Source of the DNA: a virus
Taxonomy: Duplodnaviria > Caudoviricetes
Length of the DNA: 24,655 nucleotides
Reading direction: 5' to 3' (one strand)
IMG/VR virus record: IMGVR_UViG_3300033150_002248
Span: 1 to 24,655 of that record
Shown one piece after another: positions 5,050 through 18,405 of the stretch. A program made the position numbers and the translations under genes. Each line of letters opens with the position of its first letter. Position 1 is the first letter of the stretch. The notes under the pieces were generated by a model. The model searched no databases. It was not told where the DNA came from and saw only the letters and a program-made list of their open reading frames with translations.

Positions 5050-5640
5050 ATGGCTCGCAAGAAGAAGGCTGCACGCAAGAAGGCCGCTTCCCGGAAGAAA
5101 GCTTCTTCCCAGACCAGGGAAGGCGCTTCTTCCACCGTGGACCCCAGGTTCGCGGAAATGTACCAGGGGGTGGACCGCTCGGTGTGGGAGGAGTTTGCCG
5201 AGCGGCAGGCCCAATCCAGCTTTGCTCCACCGGACATTCCCGACGGCGACTACTACGCCGTGGTGGACCAGGTACAGGCCCGGGTGGCTGGGGAAAACCC
5301 CATCCTGGAGTTTACCTTTGTTATCACCCAGGATCACCCGGACGTGGAGCATTCGATTGAGGGCCTGCGCCCCCGGCTGACGTTCTGGCTGTCCCCCGAA
5401 AGCGAGTACTACCTGGGCAACCTGGACCGCCTGGCCAAGACCCTCTACGCATTGGGGTACGATTCCCGCGACTTCGACCCTACCACTCCCGAGGGCATTG
5501 CGGAGATCGTGGAACGGCTCAACAAGGATTGCCCCTTCTGCGTTATCGGCATCCGCTGGCGGGGCGAGCGCCAAAACGTCCGCGTCCTCTACCCGACCGA
5601 CGAGAACGGCACCCCGTTGCGGGAAGAGGACATGGAGTAG
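5050..5640 (+). CDS. Putative single-stranded DNA-binding protein (DUF669-like) with basic N-terminal tail
   Basis: SD GGAGG before ATG 5050. FAPPDIPDGDYYAVV..LEFTFVI beta-rich core and acidic C-terminus. Its position after the Sak4-like ATPase fits. Confidence 0.65.
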   Translation: MARKKKAARKKAASRKKASSQTREGASSTVDPRFAEMYQGVDRSVWEEFAERQAQSSFAPPDIPDGDYYAVVDQVQARVAGENPILEFTFVITQDHPDVEHSIEGLRPRLTFWLSPESEYYLGNLDRLAKTLYALGYDSRDFDPTTPEGIAEIVERLNKDCPFCVIGIRWRGERQNVRVLYPTDENGTPLREEDME

Positions 5641-7507: not shown

Positions 7508-9503
7508 GATGCCACCCAAGCTTCGCCCCCTGTTGTTCCACGGACTGCAAATCCGGCGGGTAACAGAGGAGCAAGCCCAGGGTGATTGTCCGTTTTGTGG
7601 AAAGCCCCGCCACTTTTACGTCAATCCCGCCAACGGGAAATGGGATTGCAAGCGATGTGGCAGGAAGGGCAACATTTACAGTTTCCTTCGCCAGTGGTAT
7701 GAGTTTTGCCTGGCCGAAACCCCGGAAACGGCCTACAAGGAACTCTCCGAGGAACGCAGTATCCCGGTTGAAGCCTTCGCCCACTGGCAGTTGGCCCGTG
7801 ACCCGCAGGGCCGCTGGCTGTTCCCCGTTCACAACCTGGACGGCAGGCTGGTCAATCTCCACCTGCGCGAGCAGTCCGGCAGCCCCATTCTTTCCACCCC
7901 GGGTTGCAAGCTGCACTTGATTGGCGAGCAGAACATCCCCTCCTCCATGCCCGATTCGCCGGTCTATATCTGCGAGGGGTTCTGGGACACCTACGCCCTT
8001 TCCTGGGCAGTACGTCGCGGTTCCCAACCCGCCCTGGTGCTGGGAGTACCCGGCGCCCAGGTGTTCAAACCCGAGTGGTCCGAGTGGCTGGCCCGGCGGG
8101 ATGTGAAGCTGCTTTACGACAACGACCCGGCAGGTGCCCGGGGCATGAGCAGCATGTGCCTGAAACTGACACACTCCCGGTTGTGGGTCATTCGCTGGCC
8201 CGCCGGGTTATCCGAGGGTTACGACATCAGCGATTATGTCAAGTCCCGCCGCCGTGCCCCGGTCAAGCTGCTCAAGGAACTGGAACGGATGCTGGTCCCC
8301 TTCACTTCCCAGGAAGGAAAGAAGGCGGTACACACCCGCCCGTCCAAGCCCCCTTCCCTGAAAAAGGTATTGAATACCTATCGCAAGTACCTCCACCTGG
8401 ACCCGGTAATGGAGGATGCCATCAAGGTGATGTTTGCCTGCGTGTTATCCATCAAGGTTCCAGGTGACCCGCTGTGGCTGTTCCTGGTAGGCCCGCCGGG
8501 AGCCGGAAAAACGGTGGTCCTTCGCTGCCTGGAAGCTGTCCCCTACTGTCACTTTGAAAGCACTCTTACACCCCACAGCTTGATCTCCGGGTGGCGTACC
8601 CCTGACGGTTCCGACCCCAGCCTCATCAAGCTGCTGGCCGATGATAAAGTGCTGGTCATCAAGGATTACACGGCCATCAAGTCCATGCCCGTGGGCGAAC
8701 AGGAGGAAATCTACGGCCTGTTACGCGACGCTTACGACGGCCGGATTGACAAGGTATTCGGCCACCTGGGACCCCGGCAGTACACCTGCCATTTCGGTAT
8801 TGTGGCCGGGGTGACCGACGTAATTTACGGGGATGAGCGAGCCACGTTGGGTGAACGATTCCTGAAATGCGCGTTCATCGGTCCCGAGCACGCCAGTGAG
8901 AAACACATCCGGGCCGCCATGCGTACTATTCAGTCGCAGGCCGACTGGGAGGACCGCTTGCGGCAGATAACCGCTGACTTCCTGGACCGCGATCTGTCCC
9001 GTGTACCCAAGATTCCCGGCTGGTGGGAGGATCGCATCATCGCCTTGAGCCAGGTGGTAGCCTACCTGCGAGCCGGAGTCATTCGCCGGGGTGGTGAACT
9101 AATCAGCCGCCCCCGCCCGGAAATCGGCACCCGGCTGGCCAAGCAACTAGTCAAGCTGTCCCAGTTGCTAACCGTTATCCTGGAAACCCGGGGCCGGATT
9201 ACCAAGGAAGTCTGCCGCCTGGTCACCAAGGTGGGCCTGGACACGGTAGCGGGCTGGAACCAGGAAATTATCCGGGCATTGGCCGCGGTTTACCCGGACC
9301 GTCTCACTGTCCAGGAAATATCCCAGCGCGTGAGTGCTTCCGATTCATCGGTTCGCCGCAGGTTGGAGGACATGCGGGAATTGCGTATCGTTACCCGGAG
9401 GTCTGAGTCCAACGGGGGCCGCCGGGGTAAACCTTCCTACGGGTACGCCCTTGTCCCTGAACTTTACAAGCTCTGGGAAAGGGCCAAGTTGGAGAAAGGA
9501 TGA
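7482..9503 (+). CDS. Primase-helicase: Zn finger + TOPRIM + AAA+ ATPase + C-terminal winged HTH
   Basis: CPFC..CKRC; YICEGFWD and LYDNDPAG (TOPRIM); GPPGAGKT, VIKD, LRDAYDG, LGERFL (AAA+); LTVQEISQRVSASDSSVRRRLEDM (wHTH). The start could be 7482, 7491 or 7509. Confidence 0.88.
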   Translation: MQGMANTNEMPPKLRPLLFHGLQIRRVTEEQAQGDCPFCGKPRHFYVNPANGKWDCKRCGRKGNIYSFLRQWYEFCLAETPETAYKELSEERSIPVEAFAHWQLARDPQGRWLFPVHNLDGRLVNLHLREQSGSPILSTPGCKLHLIGEQNIPSSMPDSPVYICEGFWDTYALSWAVRRGSQPALVLGVPGAQVFKPEWSEWLARRDVKLLYDNDPAGARGMSSMCLKLTHSRLWVIRWPAGLSEGYDISDYVKSRRRAPVKLLKELERMLVPFTSQEGKKAVHTRPSKPPSLKKVLNTYRKYLHLDPVMEDAIKVMFACVLSIKVPGDPLWLFLVGPPGAGKTVVLRCLEAVPYCHFESTLTPHSLISGWRTPDGSDPSLIKLLADDKVLVIKDYTAIKSMPVGEQEEIYGLLRDAYDGRIDKVFGHLGPRQYTCHFGIVAGVTDVIYGDERATLGERFLKCAFIGPEHASEKHIRAAMRTIQSQADWEDRLRQITADFLDRDLSRVPKIPGWWEDRIIALSQVVAYLRAGVIRRGGELISRPRPEIGTRLAKQLVKLSQLLTVILETRGRITKEVCRLVTKVGLDTVAGWNQEIIRALAAVYPDRLTVQEISQRVSASDSSVRRRLEDMRELRIVTRRSESNGGRRGKPSYGYALVPELYKLWERAKLEKG

Positions 9504-9507
9504 TCTG

Positions 9508-9771
9508 ATGGAGAACTTGAGCGACGTGTTGGCCCGGGCCTTGAGGTCCCATGATGTGATAACCATCATCAAGCTGGAGGGTGGTCTGCTGATCCAGGGT
9601 TCCCCTTCCAAGGACATTGACCCGGTGGTGGAGCAATTGAACTTCTACCGGCGGGCCTGGAAAAAGATGCCCAGTAACATGACCGAAGAAAACCCTTTCC
9701 TGGGCAAGTTTCTGGATTCCCTTTCCCATGTTCTGAGCCTGGTATCTATCAGGGTTCAAGAACCTGATTGA
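9508..9771 (+). CDS. Hypothetical protein
   Basis: SD AAAGGA before ATG 9508. Its stop lies inside the degenerate first repeat unit of array 1. Confidence 0.65.
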   Translation: MENLSDVLARALRSHDVITIIKLEGGLLIQGSPSKDIDPVVEQLNFYRRAWKKMPSNMTEENPFLGKFLDSLSHVLSLVSIRVQEPD

Positions 9772-9831
9772 GTTGCAATCTTCGTTCAAGAACTCGATTG
9801 AGTTGCAATCTTCGTTCAAAAACTCGATTGA
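9742..9831 (+). repeat. 30-bp tandem repeat array 1 (one degenerate plus two near-identical units)
   Basis: 9742 GTATCTATCAGGGTTCAAGAACCTGATTGA; 9772 GTTGCAATCTTCGTTCAAGAACTCGATTGA; 9802 GTTGCAATCTTCGTTCAAAAACTCGATTGA. Confidence 0.95.
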
Positions 9832-9843
9832 AAGGAGGACGCC

Positions 9844-10581
9844 ATGTTAATGACCCGCAACGCACGCTCGGTTAGCGAGGACGAACTGGCTGAATTGCCC
9901 TGCCCGCAGGGCACCCGTACCTGGATGCCCATACCACACACCTGGTTACTGCACCTGGTGCGCCGGTCCATCCCTCTACCCTGGGAAATCGTTTCCCAGG
10001 AACATACCGTCGTAGGCAAGGACGGCCATTCCTACTTCGGCCTGCTTCACCTGCGACAGGAATCCCTGGCGGACTACTATTTCACCATTGGCCTGCGGAA
10101 CAATCACCGCAAGCAGTTTGCCGCTGGCCTGGCCTTCGGCCACAAGGTTCTCGTTTGCGAAAACCTGGCCTTCATCGGTGAGCGGGTGCTTACCCGCAAG
10201 CACACCACCGGCATCGTGGCCGATCTGCCCAGTCGCGTGCGCCAAGTAGTCACGGAGGCCCTGCCCGACTTCCACACCCGGCAATGCGACTTCTTCCACC
10301 AGTTGCATACCAGTCACCTGACGGTGGCCGATACGTACTGGCTGGTCCACCAGTCCATCATGCGGGGAATCATTCCCAAGCAGCACGCCTACCTGCCAAT
10401 GAAGCAGCTAGAGGAAATGGGGTTGCTACCCGCTCGGAACGAGCGCTACTTCATAAGTGCCTGGAATGTTTACCAGGGATTCACCCGGGTAATGCGCCTG
10501 GTCTGCCCGCCAACCAGAATTGTACGGCGCACCGTGAAGCTGTATAATCTCTTCCAGGAATTGTGGAGGAACCCGGTATGA
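9844..10581 (+). CDS. DUF932-like protein
   Basis: SD AAAGGAGG. WMPIPH, YFGLL, IGLRNNH, VLVCENLAF, RKHT motifs. Confidence 0.78.
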   Translation: MLMTRNARSVSEDELAELPCPQGTRTWMPIPHTWLLHLVRRSIPLPWEIVSQEHTVVGKDGHSYFGLLHLRQESLADYYFTIGLRNNHRKQFAAGLAFGHKVLVCENLAFIGERVLTRKHTTGIVADLPSRVRQVVTEALPDFHTRQCDFFHQLHTSHLTVADTYWLVHQSIMRGIIPKQHAYLPMKQLEEMGLLPARNERYFISAWNVYQGFTRVMRLVCPPTRIVRRTVKLYNLFQELWRNPV

Positions 10582-12197
10582 GCAAGTGGAAGAATCGCAT
10601 CGTAGGACGCGAGCTAGTCTCGCCTGAAAAACTGGTTCCCAACCCGGAGAACTGGCGAAAGCACCCGGTTTGGCAACGGCGAAGTATCGGCTGGCTGCTT
10701 TCCAAGGTGGGTTGGGTCCAGGATGTGGTGGTCAATGTGACTACCGGCCACCTGTTGGACGGTCACATGCGGGTGGAAGAGGCGTTGAAGCGAGGGGAGG
10801 AAACCGTTCCCGTGCTTTACGTCAAGCTCACCCCCGAAGAGGAACGCCTGGTCCTGGCCACCTTTGACCCCATCGCCGAGTACACCGAGACCGATACCGA
10901 CGCTCTCGAAAACCTTACCCGGGCAGCCGTGGCCGGGATGGAAGAACTGGAAGAGGATGGCCTGGACCTGCTGGAAACCATTGCCGGTGACAGTGGCATT
11001 TCGCTGGAGGCCGACGTGGCCGAAAAGGACGAGGGTCTGGCTTTCCACCGCCGGGAGGTTTGCAGCCCGGTTTCCCAGCCAGTGGAACGTGCCCCCAATG
11101 TTTGCTGCCCGTTCTACGCTCTGGACGTGGGGGTTGGTCCCTGTCGGCATAACTGTGCCTACTGTGCTACCCTGGGTCAACGGGGCAGCACCAGCCTGGG
11201 CAATCGTTTCCGTCCGGCCACTTCCACCTCCCTCAAAAAGCTGGTGGACAAAGCCAAGCTGCTCAAGGCCCCGCTGGAACTGGGAGCCGCCCAGGACCCG
11301 GCCATGCGGGAGTACGGGGTAGCCCTGCGGGAAACCCTTCGCCTGGCCCATGGTGCCGGGTTGTTCATCCTTTTCCTCACCAAGAACCCGGAGCCCATTG
11401 TTCAGGCCGTTCTGGACACCAAGTTTCCCGTGGAGCAATGCCTGGTAAAGGTCAGCTTCGGCACCTTCGACGACGATGTTGCCAAGCGGCTGGAACCCGG
11501 AGCCCCACCTCCTTCGGCCCGGTTGAAGTGCCTGCGGGAAGCCTGGAAGAAGCACGGCATTGAGGGTTGCATTCACGTCTCCCCCATGATCCTGGATCAC
11601 TGGCGAGTGGGATTCGCCGAATCCCTCAAGAAGTTTGACGGTGAACGGATCACCTGTCACCTGTTCTCCGTTTCCACCATCGGCAAGGACAATTACTACG
11701 CTCCCCGGATGGACGGCAAGATCAGCCCGGACTGGTCCATCGACCGTTACTTGGCCAAGTTTGGCAGGCGCAACCCGTCACTGTGGGGCATGTTCTACGA
11801 CTTCGACCCGGAAATTGTCCGGGAACAGATGAAAGAGTTGAAAACCATCGCGGCTGACTTCAACAAAAAGGCCAGTCCTTGTGGAATCCTGTTGACACGG
11901 CATACCTGGGATATGGTAGAATACCCTTACGGTTGTTGTACCAGCCGGATGGAAAGCCTGGGTATCGTGTCCGAGGACCCGCCACGAGGAATCCAGAACC
12001 AGTTTTGTTACCTGTGTGGAACGGGTAAGGTCAAGCGATTGCATTGTGAGTTTCTGCGGGGGATTGAAAAGCTGCCGGAAACGGAAAAGGAGCTTCAACT
12101 CTTCCGTCTCCGCCTGGCGAACGATCCCCGCGACGGGCTTTACAGATTCCGCGAAGCCGTGGAGGTGAATCATGGCCAAGAAGAAGAAGAAAGCTAA
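10578..12197 (+). CDS. ParB-N-like domain fused to SPL-like radical SAM enzyme
   Basis: SD GGAGG with ATGA overlap at 10578. ParB-like LVPNPENWRKHP..LLDGHMRVEEA..VPV. Radical SAM CRHNCAYC (CxxxCxxC), QDPA, LTKNP, AKRLEPGAPPPSARL. Confidence 0.88.
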   Translation: MSKWKNRIVGRELVSPEKLVPNPENWRKHPVWQRRSIGWLLSKVGWVQDVVVNVTTGHLLDGHMRVEEALKRGEETVPVLYVKLTPEEERLVLATFDPIAEYTETDTDALENLTRAAVAGMEELEEDGLDLLETIAGDSGISLEADVAEKDEGLAFHRREVCSPVSQPVERAPNVCCPFYALDVGVGPCRHNCAYCATLGQRGSTSLGNRFRPATSTSLKKLVDKAKLLKAPLELGAAQDPAMREYGVALRETLRLAHGAGLFILFLTKNPEPIVQAVLDTKFPVEQCLVKVSFGTFDDDVAKRLEPGAPPPSARLKCLREAWKKHGIEGCIHVSPMILDHWRVGFAESLKKFDGERITCHLFSVSTIGKDNYYAPRMDGKISPDWSIDRYLAKFGRRNPSLWGMFYDFDPEIVREQMKELKTIAADFNKKASPCGILLTRHTWDMVEYPYGCCTSRMESLGIVSEDPPRGIQNQFCYLCGTGKVKRLHCEFLRGIEKLPETEKELQLFRLRLANDPRDGLYRFREAVEVNHGQEEEES

Positions 12198-12267
12198 GAA
12201 GGCCAAGAAGGCTCCCAGACGAGGCAGACGTGGCGGGCGCCGGAAGGCTGCTGCTGGGCGTCATTGA
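12172..12267 (+). CDS. 31-aa Lys/Arg-rich histone-H1/protamine-like peptide (not in ORF track)
   Basis: SD GGAGGT at 12161 and ATG at 12172. Translation MAKKKKKAKKAKKAPRRGRRGGRRKAAAGRH*. Confidence 0.75.
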   Translation: MAKKKKKAKKAKKAPRRGRRGGRRKAAAGRH

Positions 12268-12618
12268 AAAGACCTGGTAACCTTCGCTCCCGGACCGGAC
12301 GGCCCGTTTGTCCGCTTCGAGACGGAGGATTGCCGAAAGGTCATCCGCCAGTGCCGGGCTGCTTGCTGTGCCCTGAGTGGCCTGGAATTGACGGACGATG
12401 AAGCCCAACAGATCGACCCCCGCTACCGGGTCTGGAACCCGGAAAGCCGTTGCTGGGAGTTGCGCCGGGGATCGGACGGGTACTGCATGTTGCTGGACAG
12501 GGAAACCCTGCTCTGCACCATTTACGACCACCGACCCCGGACGTGCAGGGAGTTTCACTGTACCCTGGCCCCCGACACGCGGGGCTGGAGACTGGACCTG
12601 GTACGCCTGGACGAATAG
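12268..12618 (+). CDS. YkgJ-family (CxxCxxCC) Cys-cluster protein; start codon unresolved
   Basis: The frame is open from 12268: ..DCRKVIRQCRAACC..GYCMLLD..LCTIYDHRPRTCREFHC. The track start at 12388 would omit the N-terminal Cys motif. Confidence 0.8.
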   Translation, partial: KDLVTFAPGPDGPFVRFETEDCRKVIRQCRAACCALSGLELTDDEAQQIDPRYRVWNPESRCWELRRGSDGYCMLLDRETLLCTIYDHRPRTCREFHCTLAPDTRGWRLDLVRLDE

Positions 12619-12645
12619 GCAGGGTGGAAGGCCGTTCTCTATCAC

Positions 12646-12684
12646 AGGCCCGGGCCTGTTACCAGTTGCCCGGGCCTTCTTTTT
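12646..12684 (+). terminator. Rho-independent terminator
   Basis: AGGCCCGGGC..GCCCGGGCCT stem followed by TCTTTTT. Confidence 0.8.
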
Positions 12685-12752
12685 GCGCCCCTGCCACACT
12701 ACAATAGGATTGACAAAGGGAACGAATACCTGCAAAGCAACAAGTGACAACC

Positions 12753-13292
12753 ATGGCCACCCACAAAACAAAACGCTACGCCAGCCGCCGGTTGGTCAAC
12801 CTGCTGGCCAACGAAGAGCTTTACGACAGGTTTCTTAGATTTATCCGGGCAGGAGCCAGTGCCCATGCAGCCTCCAGGACCATCGGCATTTCCGAATACA
12901 CCTTCTACCGCTGGCTGAGATGGGGTGAAAAGAACAGGGGGCCGGAATACCGGAGGTTCTACAGGGACGTGATGGAGGCCCGGGCCATGGCCCAGGTGGT
13001 AGCCGAGGTGAAGGTATTCAAAACCGACCCCAAGTTTTGGCTTACCCATGGTCCAGCCCGAGACGATTGGACTCCTGCCCCGCAAGAGGTTCGCCTGGAA
13101 GGGTTCCTGGAAACTACCCCCTGCCCCGCCCAACCCACGGACCTGGCCCAGGCATACGGCGTGCTAGCCGAGCTAGGCATTGCCGTCCAACAGGAACAGG
13201 TACAATTCTCCCCAGAAAAGGAGGGTGGCCAGCCCCGTACCGCCCCTGCCCTGAAACTGGTCCTCGGTGATGGCAAAGCGGAGAATGGCTGA
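12753..13292 (+). CDS. terS: Terminase small subunit (HTH type), putative
   Basis: HTH AHAASRTIGISEYTFYRWLRWG, YRRFYRDVMEARA, KFWL. Lies directly upstream of terL with a TGATG overlap. Confidence 0.75.
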   Translation: MATHKTKRYASRRLVNLLANEELYDRFLRFIRAGASAHAASRTIGISEYTFYRWLRWGEKNRGPEYRRFYRDVMEARAMAQVVAEVKVFKTDPKFWLTHGPARDDWTPAPQEVRLEGFLETTPCPAQPTDLAQAYGVLAELGIAVQQEQVQFSPEKEGGQPRTAPALKLVLGDGKAENG

Positions 13293-14908
13293 TGAAGTCA
13301 CAGTCTTCGTTTGAGAACTCGGTTGGGTTGCAGTCTTCGTTTGAGAACTCGACTGGCTGGAAAGACCGCCTGGCCAGCGCCCTGAAAGACAAGCCCGACC
13401 TGCAACGCAAGCTGTTGCCTGCCTGGACTCCCTACATCCCTCACAAGCCCACTCCCCGCCAACTGGCCTTCCTTTGCCTTACCCACCGCGAGGCCCTTTA
13501 CGGTGGAGCGGCAGGTGGAGGGAAATCGGATGCTCTGCTGATGGGAGCCCTGCAATACGTCAACGTCCCTGGCTACTCTGCCCTCATCCTTCGCAAAACC
13601 TTTACCGACCTCAGCCAGCCCGGAGCCTTGATCGACCGCAGCCATGACTGGCTGGACGGCACCCCAGCCGTTTGGCGACCCCAGCTTCACCGCTGGGACT
13701 TTCCTACCGGGGGCAGGCCAGCCACGTTGCAATTCGGCTACTTGCAAAGTGCCCTTGACGTGTACCGCTACCAATCCGCCGAGTTTCAATACATTGCCAT
13801 TGACGAGTTGACCCAGCACTACGAGTGGGACTACCTGTTCCTCTTCTCCCGCTGTCGCCGTCCCCGTTGTCCAGACCATGCTGACGAGCCCCATCCCCGC
13901 TGTCCCACCTGTGCCGAGTGTGCTGCCCTGGCCCGTGTCCCCTTGCGTGTACGCAGTGCCACCAACCCCGGAGGTATCGGCCATCGCTGGGTCAAGGAGA
14001 GGTTCGGTATCCGGCAGGTGACCGATCCCCGTACAGGACAAACCCGTTGGCTGGGCTCTTATGCCGACCGTCCCTACATTCCGGCCTATATCCAGGACAA
14101 TCCCTACATCGACCAGCAGTCCTACATTCTCTCACTCCACAACCTGGACCCGGTGACCCGGGAGCAGTACCTTTCTGGCGACTGGTCCATCACTCACGAG
14201 GGCCGCATCAAGCCCTCCTGGGCTCGCTACTACACCATCGACAACAAGACCGTCTATCTCAAGGACAACCAGCGAAACATCGTTCTCCGTACCTGGCCCC
14301 TGGCCCGTTGCCGGGTATTCTGCACTGCTGACACTGCTGCCTCCGTCCGCGAAGGTCCGGCAGACAAGCTGCTCTGGCGCCGGGAACCATCCTGGACGGT
14401 ACTAGCTACCTGGCTGGTCACCCCCGACCATGACCTGTTGCTTTACGACATCCTCCGTTTCCAGAAGGAAATCCCCGACATCATCCGCCTGTTCAAGCAA
14501 CGCTTCCAGGAGCTTTGCCAGAAGGGACTGCAACCGGAGTTTATCGGTATCGAAGCAGCCGCCGTTTCCCTGGGCATCATTCAAACCCTCCGCCGCGAGG
14601 GCTTGCCCATCCGTCCCCTTTCTCCCTACACCGGAGACAAGCTGGTACGGGCCACGGACTTCATCAACCGGATGGAACAGGGCAAGGTTTACTTCCTCCA
14701 GGATGCGCCCTGGCTTCCGGCCTATGAGAACGAGCTTTACACCTGGGTAGGTGATCCGGCCCAGGCTGCCGATCAGATAGACGCTTCCGCCTACGCGGGC
14801 CGTGAGGTAACCCGCTGGGCAGGTTCTACGACTACTGTTGTCCGGCGCCGCAGTGACCTGCCACGCGACTTGCCGGGCAGTGGTGTGATTCGCATGGGGA
14901 GGTTCTAG
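13292..14908 (+). CDS. terL: Terminase large subunit
   Basis: PTPRQ, Walker A YGGAAGGGKS, Walker B IAIDELTQH, SATNPGG, DNPYID. Nuclease domain TADTA, IGIE, DKLVRA, DQIDA. Confidence 0.96.
   Translation: MKSQSSFENSVGLQSSFENSTGWKDRLASALKDKPDLQRKLLPAWTPYIPHKPTPRQLAFLCLTHREALYGGAAGGGKSDALLMGALQYVNVPGYSALILRKTFTDLSQPGALIDRSHDWLDGTPAVWRPQLHRWDFPTGGRPATLQFGYLQSALDVYRYQSAEFQYIAIDELTQHYEWDYLFLFSRCRRPRCPDHADEPHPRCPTCAECAALARVPLRVRSATNPGGIGHRWVKERFGIRQVTDPRTGQTRWLGSYADRPYIPAYIQDNPYIDQQSYILSLHNLDPVTREQYLSGDWSITHEGRIKPSWARYYTIDNKTVYLKDNQRNIVLRTWPLARCRVFCTADTAASVREGPADKLLWRREPSWTVLATWLVTPDHDLLLYDILRFQKEIPDIIRLFKQRFQELCQKGLQPEFIGIEAAAVSLGIIQTLRREGLPIRPLSPYTGDKLVRATDFINRMEQGKVYFLQDAPWLPAYENELYTWVGDPAQAADQIDASAYAGREVTRWAGSTTTVVRRRSDLPRDLPGSGVIRMGRF
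13297..13356 (+). repeat. 30-bp tandem repeat array 2 (two units, inside 5' end of terL)
   Basis: GTCACAGTCTTCGTTTGAGAACTCGGTTGG / GTTGCAGTCTTCGTTTGAGAACTCGACTGG, followed by CTGGAAAG. Confidence 0.93.
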
Positions 14909-14910
14909 CC

Positions 14911-15162
14911 ATGTCCTGCAAGGACCCTCTATCGGACGATAGCGGTCTTTCTACCAGGGAGAAGAACGCCGTTCTGCTCCGCCGCCTGCGACAACTGCAA
15001 CTCCAATCCGGCCGTCCCCCCTCTGACTACTACACCGACGAAAGCCCTGAACTGTTTTTCAGCCGTCCCTGGGGACCATCCGGTTCCCTTTACTCCGTCC
15101 CTCCCCGTTGCCCGCGCCCCCAGGTGAACCGCGAGGAGCGGTGGTTCCTGGCCGGGGATTGA
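14911..15162 (+). CDS. Hypothetical protein
   Basis: SD GGAGG, starts 2 nt after the terL stop. Its TGA directly abuts repeat array 3. Confidence 0.6.
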   Translation: MSCKDPLSDDSGLSTREKNAVLLRRLRQLQLQSGRPPSDYYTDESPELFFSRPWGPSGSLYSVPPRCPRPQVNREERWFLAGD

Positions 15163-15222
15163 GTTGCAATCTCCGCTTAAGAGCTTGATTGGGTTGCAAT
15201 CTTCGCTTAGGAGCTTGATTGA
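15163..15222 (+). repeat. 30-bp tandem repeat array 3 (two units)
   Basis: GTTGCAATCTCCGCTTAAGAGCTTGATTGG / GTTGCAATCTTCGCTTAGGAGCTTGATTGA, preceded by GATTGA and followed by CTGGAAAT. Confidence 0.93.
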
Positions 15223-15285
15223 CTGGAAATCTGCTCCTGCCTTGGGTTATACTGGGTAAGGGAAGGTAACTGGAGGAAATCAGTT

Positions 15286-15543
15286 ATGCGAAAAGCTACC
15301 CGCCAGATGATGAAGGGGCTGTATGCAGCCCGTCTCCAGCACGAACAGAGCCAGTCGCGAAGGCGAAGGTTGGACTTTGAGGACCTGGAACGTGGCCGCA
15401 AACGTCTGGCTACCCTGCACCGCCAGCAGCGGAAAAAACTGGGACGTGCTCGATACCGTCGCAAACTGAAGAAACTGGGACAGCAACTGAAACGCAGGCA
15501 TCGCAGATCACTAGACCCCTATTCCACTTACTACCTACCCTGA
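15286..15543 (+). CDS. Arg/Lys-rich small basic protein (paralog 1)
   Basis: SD GGAGG. Shares GLYAAR..H and RLA.xHR..R..xG...YRR.L..xG.Q with the next ORF. Confidence 0.75.
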   Translation: MRKATRQMMKGLYAARLQHEQSQSRRRRLDFEDLERGRKRLATLHRQQRKKLGRARYRRKLKKLGQQLKRRHRRSLDPYSTYYLP

Positions 15544-15550
15544 CGGAACG

Positions 15551-15778
15551 ATGAACATTTCACCTCGTCCCAAAAGACGCCCTCGCCGTGGCCCCCTGCG
15601 TGTGGCCACTGCTTCCGTTTCCCGGCGGACCTCCGAACTGGGCATGGGCCTGTACGCTGCCCGCCAGCGACACCGCAATCGCAGGCGACTGGCCCGAATG
15701 CACCGCCGCCGCCGGAGGCAGGTAGGACCCAAGGGGTATCGCCGGATACTCCGCGAAATCGGGATGCAGTATTCCTGA
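15551..15778 (+). CDS. Arg-rich small basic protein (paralog 2)
   Basis: Sequence similarity to 15286..15543; tandem position. Confidence 0.72.
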   Translation: MNISPRPKRRPRRGPLRVATASVSRRTSELGMGLYAARQRHRNRRRLARMHRRRRRQVGPKGYRRILREIGMQYS

Positions 15779-15782
15779 AACG

Positions 15783-15968
15783 ATGCCCCGCAAGAAACGC
15801 TTCCGCAAGCGAAAGACCCGCGAGGGGTGGCGCAAGAGCTACCGGCACCTGGACTGGGCAAAGCGACCCCCTAGCTGGGATCAGGGATCGTGGGCACGTT
15901 ACTGCTGGGGAGTTGCATCTTCCGGGACAGCACCATCAACTCCTGCAACTTGCCCGTCTCGCCAGTAG
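15783..15968 (+). CDS. Small basic protein, uncertain
   Basis: MPRKKRFRKRKTR N-terminus continues the basic cluster. Its 3' half overlaps the convergent gene and it has no clear SD. Confidence 0.4.
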   Translation: MPRKKRFRKRKTREGWRKSYRHLDWAKRPPSWDQGSWARYCWGVASSGTAPSTPATCPSRQ

Positions 15969-17241
15969 TCACGGTGAAGTGGAAGCGATCCCCCCGGTGA
16001 AACCTTTCCCTGCCCGCAACCAGCCCCATTGCCAGCCCTTCGTACCAGAAGGCCGGGTTCAGCACCAGGTTGTCCACCCAGACCGCTGCACCTGCCGGTG
16101 AACCACCCGGTTCCAGGCTTACTTGGACCTTTGCATCCGGGGGTACGTCACGGGGAGCGGTCAACCAGCAGTGGTAAAGCGTCCAGTCTGCCAGCCCGGC
16201 CAACTCTGCCTGCGGGATCAATACCCGTTCGTACCGCTTGCTACTGGTGCTGGGTGTCCATCCCGTTCCAGTCACCTGGACGGTAAGACTGCCCGTCACC
16301 CCTGCCTCGGCCTTCACCCTGAAAGCCAGCAAGTATCGCCGCAGGGCATCCAGCGTTACCGTCTGCTCCAGGGAAATGGTGGTCCCGTCCGCTTCCACCA
16401 TCTTCAAGCAACTGCCGTCGTACCCGCTTGTTTCCTCGAAGACATGGGTTCCTGCGCTGCCGCTGGCAATGAGCCACCCGTCCGGCGTGTTGCTCTCCCA
16501 GGAATCGAAACCCCCGTTCATCAGCAATGACCCGCCCGGTGTCAATCCTCGCTGGCTGCCGTTACTTCCCTGCACGGCAAACTCTTCACTGCCCACTCCG
16601 GTACCGTCCATCCCGCTATCTCGAATGCACTCCACTGCCACCTCGCCGGAGGCAGTCATCTCACAAGCTGTCCCCTCATACCCTGCCCCTTCCCCGGGCC
16701 ACAACTCGTTCTCGTAGTCATAGGCATAGTCCGTCACCTGGGGCCAGCCATAACCCGGAGCATCATACCCGCTCAACAGCGAACCCCCAGCGCTGCCATC
16801 CCGGGGGCGATCCACCAGCAACTCCCCGGCATCGGCTGGAGCCTGCCGGGTCACATCGGAGATAGTCAGGGTAGTACGCTTCAACCGATGGTTGTCGTCC
16901 AGCATCTTGCCGTACAGCACACGTACCACGTCCTCTGCCCCGGCCTGGTCCGCCAGCCGATACCCTTCCGATTTCAACGGGGCAATCACCTTTTCCGGGT
17001 CCGTCAACAGTACATCTACCAGCCCGACCAGGGTTTCCGCCTGCGACGTGATTACGTCCTGAACACCCGTGACCGTGCCCATCATGTTCTCCAGGGACTC
17101 ATACCACTGCTTGCCAGACAGGTCATCCAGCAGCCCGGTCATCAACACCTCGTAGCTGTTCTGGCCAAAGACGTTCACGGCATCATAGAGATCGTACAAC
17201 CGGGAGAGATGGGTACCGAACAGGTCATCTAACAGGGCCAT
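15871..17241 (-). CDS. Acidic 456-aa protein with C-terminal carbohydrate-binding-like (CBM4/9-type) beta-sandwich; probably virion-associated
   Basis: SD GAAAGGAGG before ATG 17241, which is a better start than 17499. LLMNGGFDSW..PDGW..SCLKM..LEQTV..YLLAFRVK..VWVDNLVL. Confidence 0.75.
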   Translation of the reverse strand: MALLDDLFGTHLSRLYDLYDAVNVFGQNSYEVLMTGLLDDLSGKQWYESLENMMGTVTGVQDVITSQAETLVGLVDVLLTDPEKVIAPLKSEGYRLADQAGAEDVVRVLYGKMLDDNHRLKRTTLTISDVTRQAPADAGELLVDRPRDGSAGGSLLSGYDAPGYGWPQVTDYAYDYENELWPGEGAGYEGTACEMTASGEVAVECIRDSGMDGTGVGSEEFAVQGSNGSQRGLTPGGSLLMNGGFDSWESNTPDGWLIASGSAGTHVFEETSGYDGSCLKMVEADGTTISLEQTVTLDALRRYLLAFRVKAEAGVTGSLTVQVTGTGWTPSTSSKRYERVLIPQAELAGLADWTLYHCWLTAPRDVPPDAKVQVSLEPGGSPAGAAVWVDNLVLNPAFWYEGLAMGLVAGRERFHRGDRFHFTVTTGETGKLQELMVLSRKMQLPSSNVPTIPDPS

Positions 17242-17283
17242 GGCCTTCCTCCTTTCGGGGGGATGAGAATGGGAATCTTCGCC

Positions 17284-17313
17284 TTGCACCGTTTCCCTCC
17301 CCCCGAGTATAAT
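17284..17313 (+). promoter_or_regulatory. Sigma70-type promoter of the head operon
   Basis: TTGCAC-18 bp-TATAAT in the divergent intergenic gap, then SD GAGGTG and ATG 17335. Confidence 0.65.
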
Positions 17314-17334
17314 ACACGGCAGAGGTGATAAACC

Positions 17335-18405
17335 ATGCGTTTCGTCAAGCAAATCCTCAAACCCGGGGTCTATCTGGCCAGCACTCCCTCTGGTCGCAAG
17401 CGGCGGGTGCGCTTGACCCTGGACCGGCTGAAGCGCATCTGCGAGACCTTCCAGAACATGCTCAAGGCCGGGTTGAACATCCCGGCCCCCTGGGGCCATG
17501 ATGGCTCCATCCCTGTTCGCAGCGCGGACGTGGTGAAAAACAACGTGGGGTTCTGGAAGAAGCTTTGGCTGGACCAGAAGACCGGCTGGCTGTACGGGGA
17601 ACTAGAGGTGCCCCGGGAAGAGGACGCTTCCAGGGTAGGAACCACCGTACAAGAGGTTTCCCCGTTCCTGGCCCCGGAGTGGAGAGATGGGCAGGGAAAC
17701 GTCTGGAAGGACGCCATTTTGCACATTGGCCTGGTAGCTCATCCGGTAGTTGCCGGGCAGGAAAACTTTCAGAAGGCCGAGGAGTCTGCCATGTCGCTGC
17801 AAATGAGCGGTTATCTTTTTGCTGACGAAGGAACTGAACTGGAACGGGCGCTGGCCATCCTGCGGGGACTGGGCTTGCCCTTGCCCGATGATACCACCGA
17901 GGAAAACTTGCTGGAACGAATCCTCATCGCCGGTGAGGCGTTGTTGAAGAAGAAGCAAGACGAAGAGGGCGAGCCCGAAAAGAAAACCGGGGAACAGAAA
18001 TCCCCCGAGAAGCCCCAGCAAGAGCCTGCTCCCGTGGCCATGGCTGCCGAGCTTGAAGCGGCAGGCCAGAAGATCAAGGTTCTGGAAGCCACCGCTTCCA
18101 AGTTGCTGGGCGAGCGTTACCTGTCCCGCATCCGGCAGCTAGTCGCCACCGGCCGCTGCTCCCCGGACTATGCCAACAAGAAGCTGGTGCCGATGGCTGA
18201 AAACCTCCAATTTTCGCTGGACGAGAAGGGCGTTCCCATGTCCAATCCCTTGGACCCCATCCTGGAGGCCCTGGAAGCCCAGCCTGCCAATCCCATCACC
18301 CGAACCGAGGAACCCTTCCCCTACAAGCCCACTGGCGAGTTGACGGACGAAGAAGCAGAGAAGATTGCAGACTCCGTGTTTCAAGTCGCCGGACTCAAGT
18401 GCTGA
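17335..18405 (+). CDS. Prohead protease / scaffold (Mu gpI-like)
   Basis: ILKPGVY, IPAPWGHD, VGFWKKL, LYGELEV, EVSP, HIGLVAHPVVAGQENF, then a charged helical C-terminus. Lies upstream of the capsid genes. Confidence 0.82.
   Translation: MRFVKQILKPGVYLASTPSGRKRRVRLTLDRLKRICETFQNMLKAGLNIPAPWGHDGSIPVRSADVVKNNVGFWKKLWLDQKTGWLYGELEVPREEDASRVGTTVQEVSPFLAPEWRDGQGNVWKDAILHIGLVAHPVVAGQENFQKAEESAMSLQMSGYLFADEGTELERALAILRGLGLPLPDDTTEENLLERILIAGEALLKKKQDEEGEPEKKTGEQKSPEKPQQEPAPVAMAAELEAAGQKIKVLEATASKLLGERYLSRIRQLVATGRCSPDYANKKLVPMAENLQFSLDEKGVPMSNPLDPILEALEAQPANPITRTEEPFPYKPTGELTDEEAEKIADSVFQVAGLKC

Follow-up and report, generated by a model that had tools for sequence, protein, structure and literature searches.

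What are the short tandem repeats that stand at three gene junctions of this phage, and through which molecule do they act? In the window, i.e., the whole 24,655-nt stretch of DNA that was analyzed (IMG/VR record IMGVR_UViG_3300033150_002248, Caudoviricetes), three arrays hold seven 30-bp units in all, every one on the + strand, with a period of 30 and no spacers. The reading that we favor, at a probability of about 0.45, is that the arrays are a lineage-specific, protein-bound mRNA operator placed at the three junctions. The arrays and their surroundings are as follows:

9508..9771, + strand: orphan ORF of 87 aa, no PHROGs or NCBIfam match; its stop TGA ends the degenerate unit
9742..9771, + strand: array 1, degenerate unit; coding; pairs replace the internal loop; predicted -8.1 kcal/mol
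9772..9831, + strand: array 1, two full units (9772, 9802); 3′ end flush with the Shine-Dalgarno site of the next gene
9832..9838, + strand: Shine-Dalgarno-like sequence AAGGAGG before the ATG at 9844
9844..10581, + strand: DUF932-like protein (ESM Atlas features 0.97, structure TM 0.89 to DUF932 clusters); no Pfam match by hmmscan
12744..13292, + strand: terminase small subunit (TerS), helix-turn-helix (phrog_4102, E 4.9e-9; HTH_23 below cut-off)
13292..14908, + strand: terminase large subunit, terL (phrog_979, E 8.6e-61); ATG at 13292, GGAG at 13280-13283
13297..13356, + strand: array 2, two units (13297, 13327), inside terL codons 2-22
14911..15162, + strand: ORF of 83 aa; a partial unit end at 15157-15162 supplies its stop TGA
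15163..15222, + strand: array 3, two units (15163, 15193), inner-stem C-G double change
15224..15253, + strand: weak sigma-70-like match, 9/12, at chance level (2 found, 2.5 expected)

The arrays sit along a long run of same-strand genes. A profile of the six good units scored those six at 42-50 bits and the degenerate unit at 17, the best score elsewhere in the window being 8.7; together with a second phage that carries the same units, this confirms the seven units, three arrays and single strand reported by the first-pass annotation. The consensus given there fits five of the six good units, unit 13297 starting with GTCA and not GTTG. Its statement that the arrays start at or just after a stop codon is right for array 3, which follows the stop at 15162, and has to be amended elsewhere: the degenerate unit lies within an ORF, and array 2 lies within terL. 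The terS stop and the terL start share one base, and array 2 begins 5 nt past the terS stop and likewise 5 nt past the base that opens the terL start codon, which places it in coding sequence. Four of the seven units are intergenic, with array 2 and unit 9742 falling within reading frames. A peptide-repeat reading was rejected, as the open frame is used in array 2 only and changes are often non-synonymous. Among 165 related loci examined, there was no comparably good dispersed 30-bp tandem family; 11 contained a tandem unit that resembled a distant second sequence at 75% identity (period 21-24 in ten, 33 in one). The arrays probably spread by local duplication, with sequence exchange continuing. 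A length of 30 nt preserves the reading frame.

A second contig shares 99.2% identity with the first (175 differences over 21,033 aligned bases) and bears the same seven units; a search of its 38,251 bases that allowed up to 3 mismatches found no eighth. The repeats are thus not an assembly artefact. The arrays differ faster between the two phages (2.8%) than the genomes as a whole (0.83%), and all five differences within units are in unpaired positions (P 0.02, or 0.05 when they are taken as four events). Stem-breaking substitutions in a homologue, which the first-pass annotation had set against its own claim, were therefore not what the second phage showed.

Across nine distinct units, 72 of 72 cells are paired, a result equalled by 1 of 500 shuffles, and variable columns are rarer among paired (5/16) than among unpaired positions (11/14; Fisher P 0.014). 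With the structure fixed, the unbroken pairs give P 0.0024, and the addition of the two double changes gives P 0.0007; with any hairpin allowed, 19 of 3000 shuffles reach the observed pairing. The variation thus respects the stems beyond chance, as had been claimed, and the claim that the + strand acts agrees with the count of broken cells, none on the + strand and four on the - strand. The double changes and G-U pairs described earlier are present in the units, with two G-U pairs in the first unit of array 2 and a G-C double change in its second. Two of the compensatory double changes count as independent, because the one seen in each unit of array 3 probably arose once and was then copied. 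All variants within units are transitions, as are 169 of the 175 differences genome-wide, so that each has even odds of leaving a G-U pair. On this comparison the pairing signal holds but is small: it comes from two genomes, with two G-U pairs and two double changes that count as independent.

The arms are spaced asymmetrically, by 3 positions on one flank and 2 on the opposite one, an arrangement better fitted to an internal loop in RNA than to a dyad in DNA. This bears on an unlikely alternative that nevertheless deserves weight, namely tandem double-stranded DNA operators, in which a dimeric phage protein (a repressor, a late activator or the helix-turn-helix terminase small subunit) would bind spaced inverted half-sites every 30 bp, about three helical turns. 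The weakness of the RNA folding is in keeping with such sites, the symmetric columns of a dyad would tolerate the same change, and TerS bears a helix-turn-helix, with array 2 at the end of terS. The second phage also has a distinct family of 28-bp tandem repeats that resembles DNA sites, having inverted arms of 5 bp and copies in inverted orientation, and the weak promoter-like match follows array 3, its -10 hexamer being retained in the second phage. However, a dyad need not change both arms in the same copies, as both double changes do, and the asymmetric spacing also speaks against one. The promoter match is at chance, with none upstream of any array or downstream of arrays 1 or 2, and the 37 + 21 + 23 ORF queries scanned yielded no repressor family, 23% of the genome being missing.

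Predicted folding shows which form the pairs could take. Single units fold no better than shuffles (z -0.4 to -0.65; +1.8 for 13297). Two units folded as one 55-nt rod reuse the same pairs and are 5.7-9.0 kcal/mol better than two hairpins in 6/6 dimers, the rod being the minimum-energy fold, or nearly so, in 5/6. It has 18 pairs, with 107/108 cells paired and double changes at 3 pairs; a change at 9820 disrupts its extra pair. Because the rod accommodates the same pairs more stably, the earlier picture of tandem single hairpins, each with one 3x2 internal loop, is not established. An alternative inner pairing, of the 3-nt loop strand with the following purines, was the minimum-energy fold in two single units, failed in three others and was set aside. 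The dimers are no better than tandem-preserving shuffles (201, 336 and 97 of 500). With flanks, the intra-unit pair probability is at most 0.21 in 5/6 of the arrays examined, and that of the outer rod pair is 0.00 in 6/6. The first unit of array 2 can pair with the terL ribosome-binding site, and forcing the conserved fold there cuts the opening cost of the site from 12.7 to 9.2-10.0 kcal/mol; at arrays 1 and 3 it shifts access by 0.8 kcal/mol at most. As DNA, the units fold at -0.2 to -5.5 kcal/mol (+2.6 for 13297 in the conserved fold).

From the repeats, their common strand, their placement at stop/start junctions and their pair-keeping variation, all of which are observed, we infer that RNA is the molecule that folds. 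In the mechanism that we propose, the three arrays would be copies of one phage-specific mRNA operator, whose RNA would form a weak stem-internal loop-stem, most stable as the predicted rod over two units; a protein would grip the folded RNA and so adjust expression of the gene after each junction. A protein would be needed because the fold by itself is weak and, within its flanks, mostly loses out to other pairings. Control would be exerted at translation start, since array 1 lies directly against a ribosome-binding site, the bases right after the terL start codon fall within array 2, and array 3 leads an arginine-rich gene cluster. Arrays 1 and 2 overlap or abut a translation start directly, and array 3 does not, its end lying 49 nt before the next Shine-Dalgarno site. 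The operators of T4 RegA, gp32 and gp43 are described at or beside the translation starts of several genes, where the phage protein competes with the ribosome, and such repressors are known to control their own genes as well (PMC3014915). Arrays 1 and 2 resemble these translational operators in lying by the translation starts of genes. RegA sites are unstructured and not repeats, whereas the arrays consist of a near-identical 30-nt unit placed head to tail in each of three locations. The phage ORFs scanned included no RegA-like protein and no other known binder.

Behind array 3 lie the following features:

15258..15586: variable patch, 329 bases here and 88 different bases in the second phage
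15286..15543, + strand: Arg/Lys-rich ORF 1, 85 aa, 34% R+K, not in the second phage
15551..15778, + strand: Arg/Lys-rich ORF 2, 75 aa, 33% R+K, orphan, candidate binder
15783..15968, + strand: Arg/Lys-rich ORF 3, 61 aa, 26% R+K

ORFs 1 and 2 are 45% identical in alignment; ORF 2 has no Atlas match, and the sole match found is the second phage's copy. Speculatively, and with rather low odds, one of these orphan arginine-rich peptides could be the binder, which would give self-control; the peptides may also simply condense DNA. A more elaborate version, which we consider quite unlikely, would make the spacerless unit pairs two-state switches, alternating between twin hairpins or a two-fold symmetric rod and folds that hide the ribosome site. 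A ribosome halting at the stop codon within the repeat itself would tip these switches, and the orphan arginine-rich peptides would lock them, so that one protein would time replication-to-packaging expression at three junctions, one of them within the terminase frame. The same interval of 4 syntenic relatives contains no comparable arginine-rich orphan cluster and no repeat. In the relative L011 there is one 131-aa ORF with 31% R+K, which looks like a different, Cys/His-bearing protein. Another arginine-rich peptide is encoded behind the portal gene.

The variable patch, which is surrounded by a SNP cluster from 15194 to 15619, raises the question of recombination. Slippage could have duplicated an inverted repeat and template switching produced the matched changes, the copies being kept as crossovers for gene swaps; we regard such recombination anchors or neutral quasi-palindromes as improbable. 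In the one comparison at hand, the divergent tract begins at array 3 and leads on to the replacement of 329 by 88 bases, the loop of unit 13327 in the second phage is identical to the array 1 loop, as expected of gene conversion, and the phage codes for a Sak4-like annealing protein and an exonuclease. Template switching is also reported to make inverted arms homogeneous (PMC8604942). It should, however, erase the internal loop and invert the loop, and 12/12 good units keep the former with 0 inverted. Further, stem columns are less variable than loop columns, the replacement begins 35 nt beyond the array, and a crossover between arrays 2 and 3 would delete terL.

The operator reading was also set against RNA elements that act on the polymerase. 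Like the predicted hairpins of the arrays, lambdoid nut/boxB and put sites are small RNA hairpins at several places in a genome, and the put element of HK022 (PMC8632103) consists of two hairpins over about 65 nt, similar in length to the 60 nt of the two full units in each array. The lambdoid N protein is arginine-rich, and by analogy the small, basic, unstructured peptides of the phage are putative binders. A 60-nt twin hairpin in the nascent RNA could thus bind RNA polymerase and carry it past terminators into the packaging genes, along the long same-strand gene run. This is very improbable here: the arrays are not promoter-proximal, no promoter-like match lies upstream of them, and no + strand terminator-like site exists between 8000 and 15068. 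Put hairpins must self-fold, and the units fold weakly; their two hairpins are mutual copies that can form one rod. The arrays show no sequence match to nut/put and no Rfam match, and a boxA motif with one mismatch allowed occurs once in the window, at 2379, against 5 expected, and nowhere near an array.

The unit appears to be lineage-specific: in all our searches here, it was found only in two genomes, the window phage and its near-twin. A comparison of the window with Rfam 15 at E up to 5 gave 5 matches, all of them away from the arrays and none near gathering score, in agreement with the view that the element is undescribed and matches no Rfam family. A covariance model, the check proposed for relatives, could be built and scored the window units at 40-52 bits, and retrieved no homologue (at most 19.5 bits) from 185 loci, namely listed terminase, capsid and polymerase relatives (85 + 80 + 20), of which the terminase relatives are a sample from profile scans that covered 5 and 20 of 64 parts. 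A dispersed repeat in L011 has a few letters in common with the unit, gave no score with this model and was rejected. In viral contigs, the hairpin pattern returned 9 stretches, of which 3 belong to the twin and the other 6 are single matches in 3 unrelated families, and the junction pattern 35, 3 from the twin and the rest single, in 2 unrelated families and without the 3′ arm. In metagenomes, an 18-base pattern returned 0 matches and a 14-base pattern 31 single matches, with no tandem. A pair is broken in 11 of 27 distinct contexts of the viral and metagenome matches, about as by chance. With blastn, array 1 had 3 matches at E 1-4 in 50,697 phage and 72,556 plasmid records; the capsid profile had no match in genome contigs, and within viral contigs the DUF932 gene was found in the twin only. 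For the viral structured RNAs of Fremin et al. (PMC10690425), four short motifs were absent from 4 of the 6 supplementary files, the alignments possibly lying elsewhere. A literature search, which cannot be made by the unit's sequence, found no paper on the element.

The units are palindromic, 30 nt long and start with GTT, and the last unit of array 1 continues into GAAAG; GAAAG-like ends occur in some type I/III CRISPR repeats. CRISPR-repeat mimics (RNA anti-CRISPR decoys) or Cas6-type processing sites are nonetheless the least credible of the explanations, as the GAAAG ending is found in 1/7 units and, unlike in a CRISPR array, the period equals the unit length (30), leaving no unique spacers. 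Racr/SRU elements (PMC10651486) are likewise phage-borne palindromes of CRISPR-repeat length with no spacers or cas genes. They are defined there as solitary, with no other repeat within 100 bp, and the candidates are intergenic and correspond to a known repeat; the phage units stand 2-3 per array, one array is coding, and no matching host repeat was found in the genomes scanned. In this indirect test, a repeat-ends pattern run over 401 genomes of the order around a Pirellulaceae genome, from which the phage's host may differ, gave 22 single matches and no array, against 16 control matches, and the 31 metagenome matches contained no array.

The units share with REP/BIME elements and IS200/IS605 hairpins an imperfect hairpin with a tetranucleotide at its base, and a clustering after stop codons. 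Such elements form a stable single-strand DNA hairpin and have an HUH transposase as partner. The phage units differ in being direct spacerless tandems of 7 copies only, with very weak DNA folding, and a Pfam search of 37 window ORFs found no HUH transposase family; the REP-family match that had been named as speaking against a new element was therefore not obtained. PeSL cassettes of T4-type phages (PMC2839356) are, like the arrays, dispersed stem-loop repeats at gene borders, and orphan genes and a variable patch adjoin both. The arrays differ from them in being tandem and not single, in flanking a core terminase gene, and in being without a strong sigma-70 promoter or terminator tail: no consensus sigma-70 promoter lies within the motif, the 9/12 match after array 3 is at chance level, and 0/7 terminator-like sites (G+C stem and U run) in 8000-18000 are at an array.

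Should the arrays be DNA operators or recombination anchors, they would join familiar phage repeat types. If the mRNA operator reading is right, they would be an undescribed RNA operator in a phage lineage without close sequenced kin, with a candidate partner adjacent, and the phage would have built a multi-site RNA regulon from copies of a single short unit, placed even within a reading frame. Outside the near-twin, the nearest other terminase is 54-56% identical and the nearest polymerase 42%; one named terminase relative is from a Thermoguttaceae bin (49%), and the genome matches listed span many phyla.

Tandem repeats of a 30-bp self-pairing unit lie in three arrays in the window, a 24,655-base piece of a tailed phage. 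The repeats are real and apparently undescribed; that they form an RNA structure is moderately supported, and any function is putative. The order of genes and arrays is:

+ strand, in order: exonuclease, Sak4-like protein, family A DNA polymerase, primase
9508-9771, + strand: orphan ORF after the primase
9742-9831, + strand: array 1 (units at 9742, 9772 and 9802)
9844-10581, + strand: DUF932-like gene after the orphan ORF
+ strand, next: ParB-like/radical SAM gene, terminase small subunit (terS), large subunit (terL), small ORFs
13297-13356, + strand: array 2 (units at 13297 and 13327)
15163-15222, + strand: array 3 (units at 15163 and 15193)
next, after the small ORFs: one gene on the - strand; then head genes including that of the major capsid protein

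One other contig, here called the twin, is 99.2% identical to the window; beyond it, among the candidates scored, the closest terminase shares 54-56% identity and the closest polymerase 42%. One terminase at 49% identity bears a Thermoguttaceae label, a weak host pointer against which stand genome matches from many phyla. The lone - strand gene (15871-17208) between the terminase and head genes recurs in this layout in four distant relatives (L011, L017/L018, L059, L061), with the portal gene far off. At 10563-12197 one gene joins a ParB-like and a radical SAM domain and may encode a DNA-modification enzyme. The twin has a near-consensus sigma-70 promoter ahead of its early genes (L104 ~5150-5200, - strand), back to back with two opposite-strand genes.

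The seven units are spacerless; the six good ones score 42-50 bits and the degenerate one (9742) 17, while the best other site in the window scores 8.7. The twin, whose 38,251 bases cover by estimate 77% of the genome, carries the same seven and no more, and the arrays diverge by 2.8% between the two phages, compared with 0.83% overall. Arrays 2 and 3 have in common the seven bases past their last unit, which suggests that whole arrays were copied with their flank.

The stem changes described in the first-pass annotation are all found in the units. The two phages together give nine distinct units, in which 72 of 72 cells are paired, a score reached by 1 of 500 shuffles in a control that ignores relatedness. 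When each column's change pattern was kept and the patterns were dealt to random columns, zero broken pairs arose in 0.24% of deals, and zero broken pairs plus two double changes in 0.07%; with any hairpin of at least 8 pairs counted, 19 of 3000 column-shuffled alignments equalled the real one. Changes fall in 5 of 16 paired versus 11 of 14 unpaired columns (P 0.014), and all five between-phage differences in the good units are unpaired (P 0.02; 0.05 when the two neighbouring ones count as a single event). Reading the units on the - strand breaks 4 cells. The inner-stem double change reported for both units of array 3 is present but is likely one inherited event, so that independent double changes number only two. 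All unit variants are transitions, in line with the very strong transition bias between window and twin (L010; 169 of 175 differences genome-wide), and each G-U outcome is thus an even chance. Recombination anchors or neutral quasi-palindromes would suit the divergent tract that begins at array 3 and a loop swap in the twin; since the internal loop is kept in 12 of 12 good units, we consider them rather improbable.

Folded singly, five units have z of -0.4 to -0.65, none beating shuffles, the unit at 13297 has +1.8 and the degenerate unit -1.7. Because the units stand head to tail, the same arms can also pair across them. In the two-unit rod that would result, 18 pairs are interrupted by two 3x2 loops and, in the middle, by a 2x2 purine loop, with a 5-nt loop capping the end. 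RNAalifold picks the rod (107 of 108 cells paired, 3 double-changed pairs), which is better than two hairpins by 5.7-9.0 kcal/mol in 6 of 6 dimers; one change disrupts its extra pair. The covariation fits hairpin and rod alike and separates neither, and tandem-preserving shuffles reveal no gain for hairpin or rod (201, 336 and 97 of 500 fold as low). Once 40 flanking bases are included, intra-unit pairs have a probability of at most 0.21 in five of six arrays and of 0.85 in the twin's array 3, the outer rod pair has 0.00, and junction stems reach 0.49 (window array 1) and 0.94 (window array 3). Pairs that are conserved but weak in context would prevail only with help from a ligand or from co-transcriptional timing, and we infer that they are the expected signature of a protein-recognised site. 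A DNA dyad operator would suit the weak folding and the 30-bp tandem spacing, and a second, 28-bp tandem family in the twin, with inverted copies, resembles DNA sites; such an operator leaves unexplained both the change of the two arms in the same copies and the 3-versus-2 arm spacing, and is in our view unlikely.

All three arrays lie at stop/start borders between adjacent genes, and the repeat's own TGA is the stop of the ORFs preceding arrays 1 and 3. Array 1 ends flush with a strong ribosome site. Counted from the first base of the terL start codon, array 2 starts five bases further on, overlying the bases right after the start; because a good ribosome site serves this start, which overlaps the terS stop, the array is most likely translated, as terL codons 2-22, and the 30-base unit preserves the frame. 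Pairing is possible between the first unit of this array and the terL ribosome site; opening the site costs 12.7 kcal/mol when folding is left free versus 9.2-10.0 with the conserved fold forced. In a separate control, only one of 18 starts was more closed than that of terL. Three small arginine-rich ORFs have array 3 as their leader. Forcing the fold in arrays 1 and 3 shifts ribosome access by at most 0.8 kcal/mol, which leaves bound protein, not the fold alone, as the source of any effect at these two. We tentatively read the arrays as RNA operators (probability about 0.45), which would act at gene borders as sites bound by protein, much as phage translational operators (PMC3014915) or boxB-type sites do. 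A put-like antiterminator would match in array size but has neither a promoter before nor terminators after, and we give it a slim chance.

For each of Rfam families, Racr/SRU (PMC10651486), CRISPR arrays, PeSL (PMC2839356), nut and REP, at least one defining feature was looked for and is absent at the arrays. One unit's ending is like the ends of some CRISPR repeats, which were used for comparison along with boxA and REP features. This would suit a CRISPR mimic; in an indirect test, 401 genomes gave 22 single matches versus 16 in the control and no array, and we consider mimicry highly improbable. A search of Rfam gave no homologue beyond the twin, in keeping with the earlier proposal of an undescribed element. 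The covariance model proposed with it was built and run, and found no homologue among 185 related loci. Pattern scans of viral and metagenome sequences gave single matches only, with pairs broken at chance rate, annotated phages and plasmids yielded no homologue, and four syntenic relatives (39-49% terminase identity) do not have the repeat. Four of the six supplements of a viral structured-RNA catalogue (PMC10690425) contain no motif match; its largest files may list one. Judged by its sequence distribution, the element is young or lineage-limited, which sets a ceiling on the evidence that comparison can give.

The arginine-rich peptides are candidate binders of the arrays, although a doubtful choice, and may be DNA-condensing instead. 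Lambdoid N proteins are described as small basic peptides that bind hairpins (PMC8632103). The arginine-rich ORF searched is an orphan matched only in the twin, and the repeat is equally twin-limited; the twin is without one of the three ORFs, and another such ORF, the fourth, follows the portal gene. These four small arginine/lysine-rich ORFs are near packaging genes (window 15286-15968, L104:8600-8854), and the first two resemble paralogues. A 329-base patch with an arginine-rich ORF (15258-15586) is replaced in the twin by 88 unrelated bases (L010:11967-12054), which also shifts the next ORF to a different start.

Other repeats were seen nearby or in relatives. The twin's second family (L104:8420-8600; 2.5 x 28 bp, unrelated to the 30-bp unit), not found in any other viral contig, has 5-bp inverted arms around 12 nt and starts at the stop of the arginine-rich ORF behind the portal gene; after it comes a long A+T-rich hairpin that has inverted copies of the unit (fold z -7.7). 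The region may be a genome end or a site of packaging or replication. The distant relative L011 has its own dispersed A+T-rich repeats (3900, 13164, 21283 and 2154, 13427, 16022), several right before ribosome-binding sites, which the window-unit model does not match. In an unrelated low-G+C virus family, a structured non-coding stretch (L007:2780-3070, - strand; also L005 and L006; fold z -3.2, with no Rfam family reaching its gathering score) holds one chance-like copy of the unit's hairpin shape. A terminase-related virus carries tandem, operator-like 22-bp palindromic repeats (L029:5494-5634).
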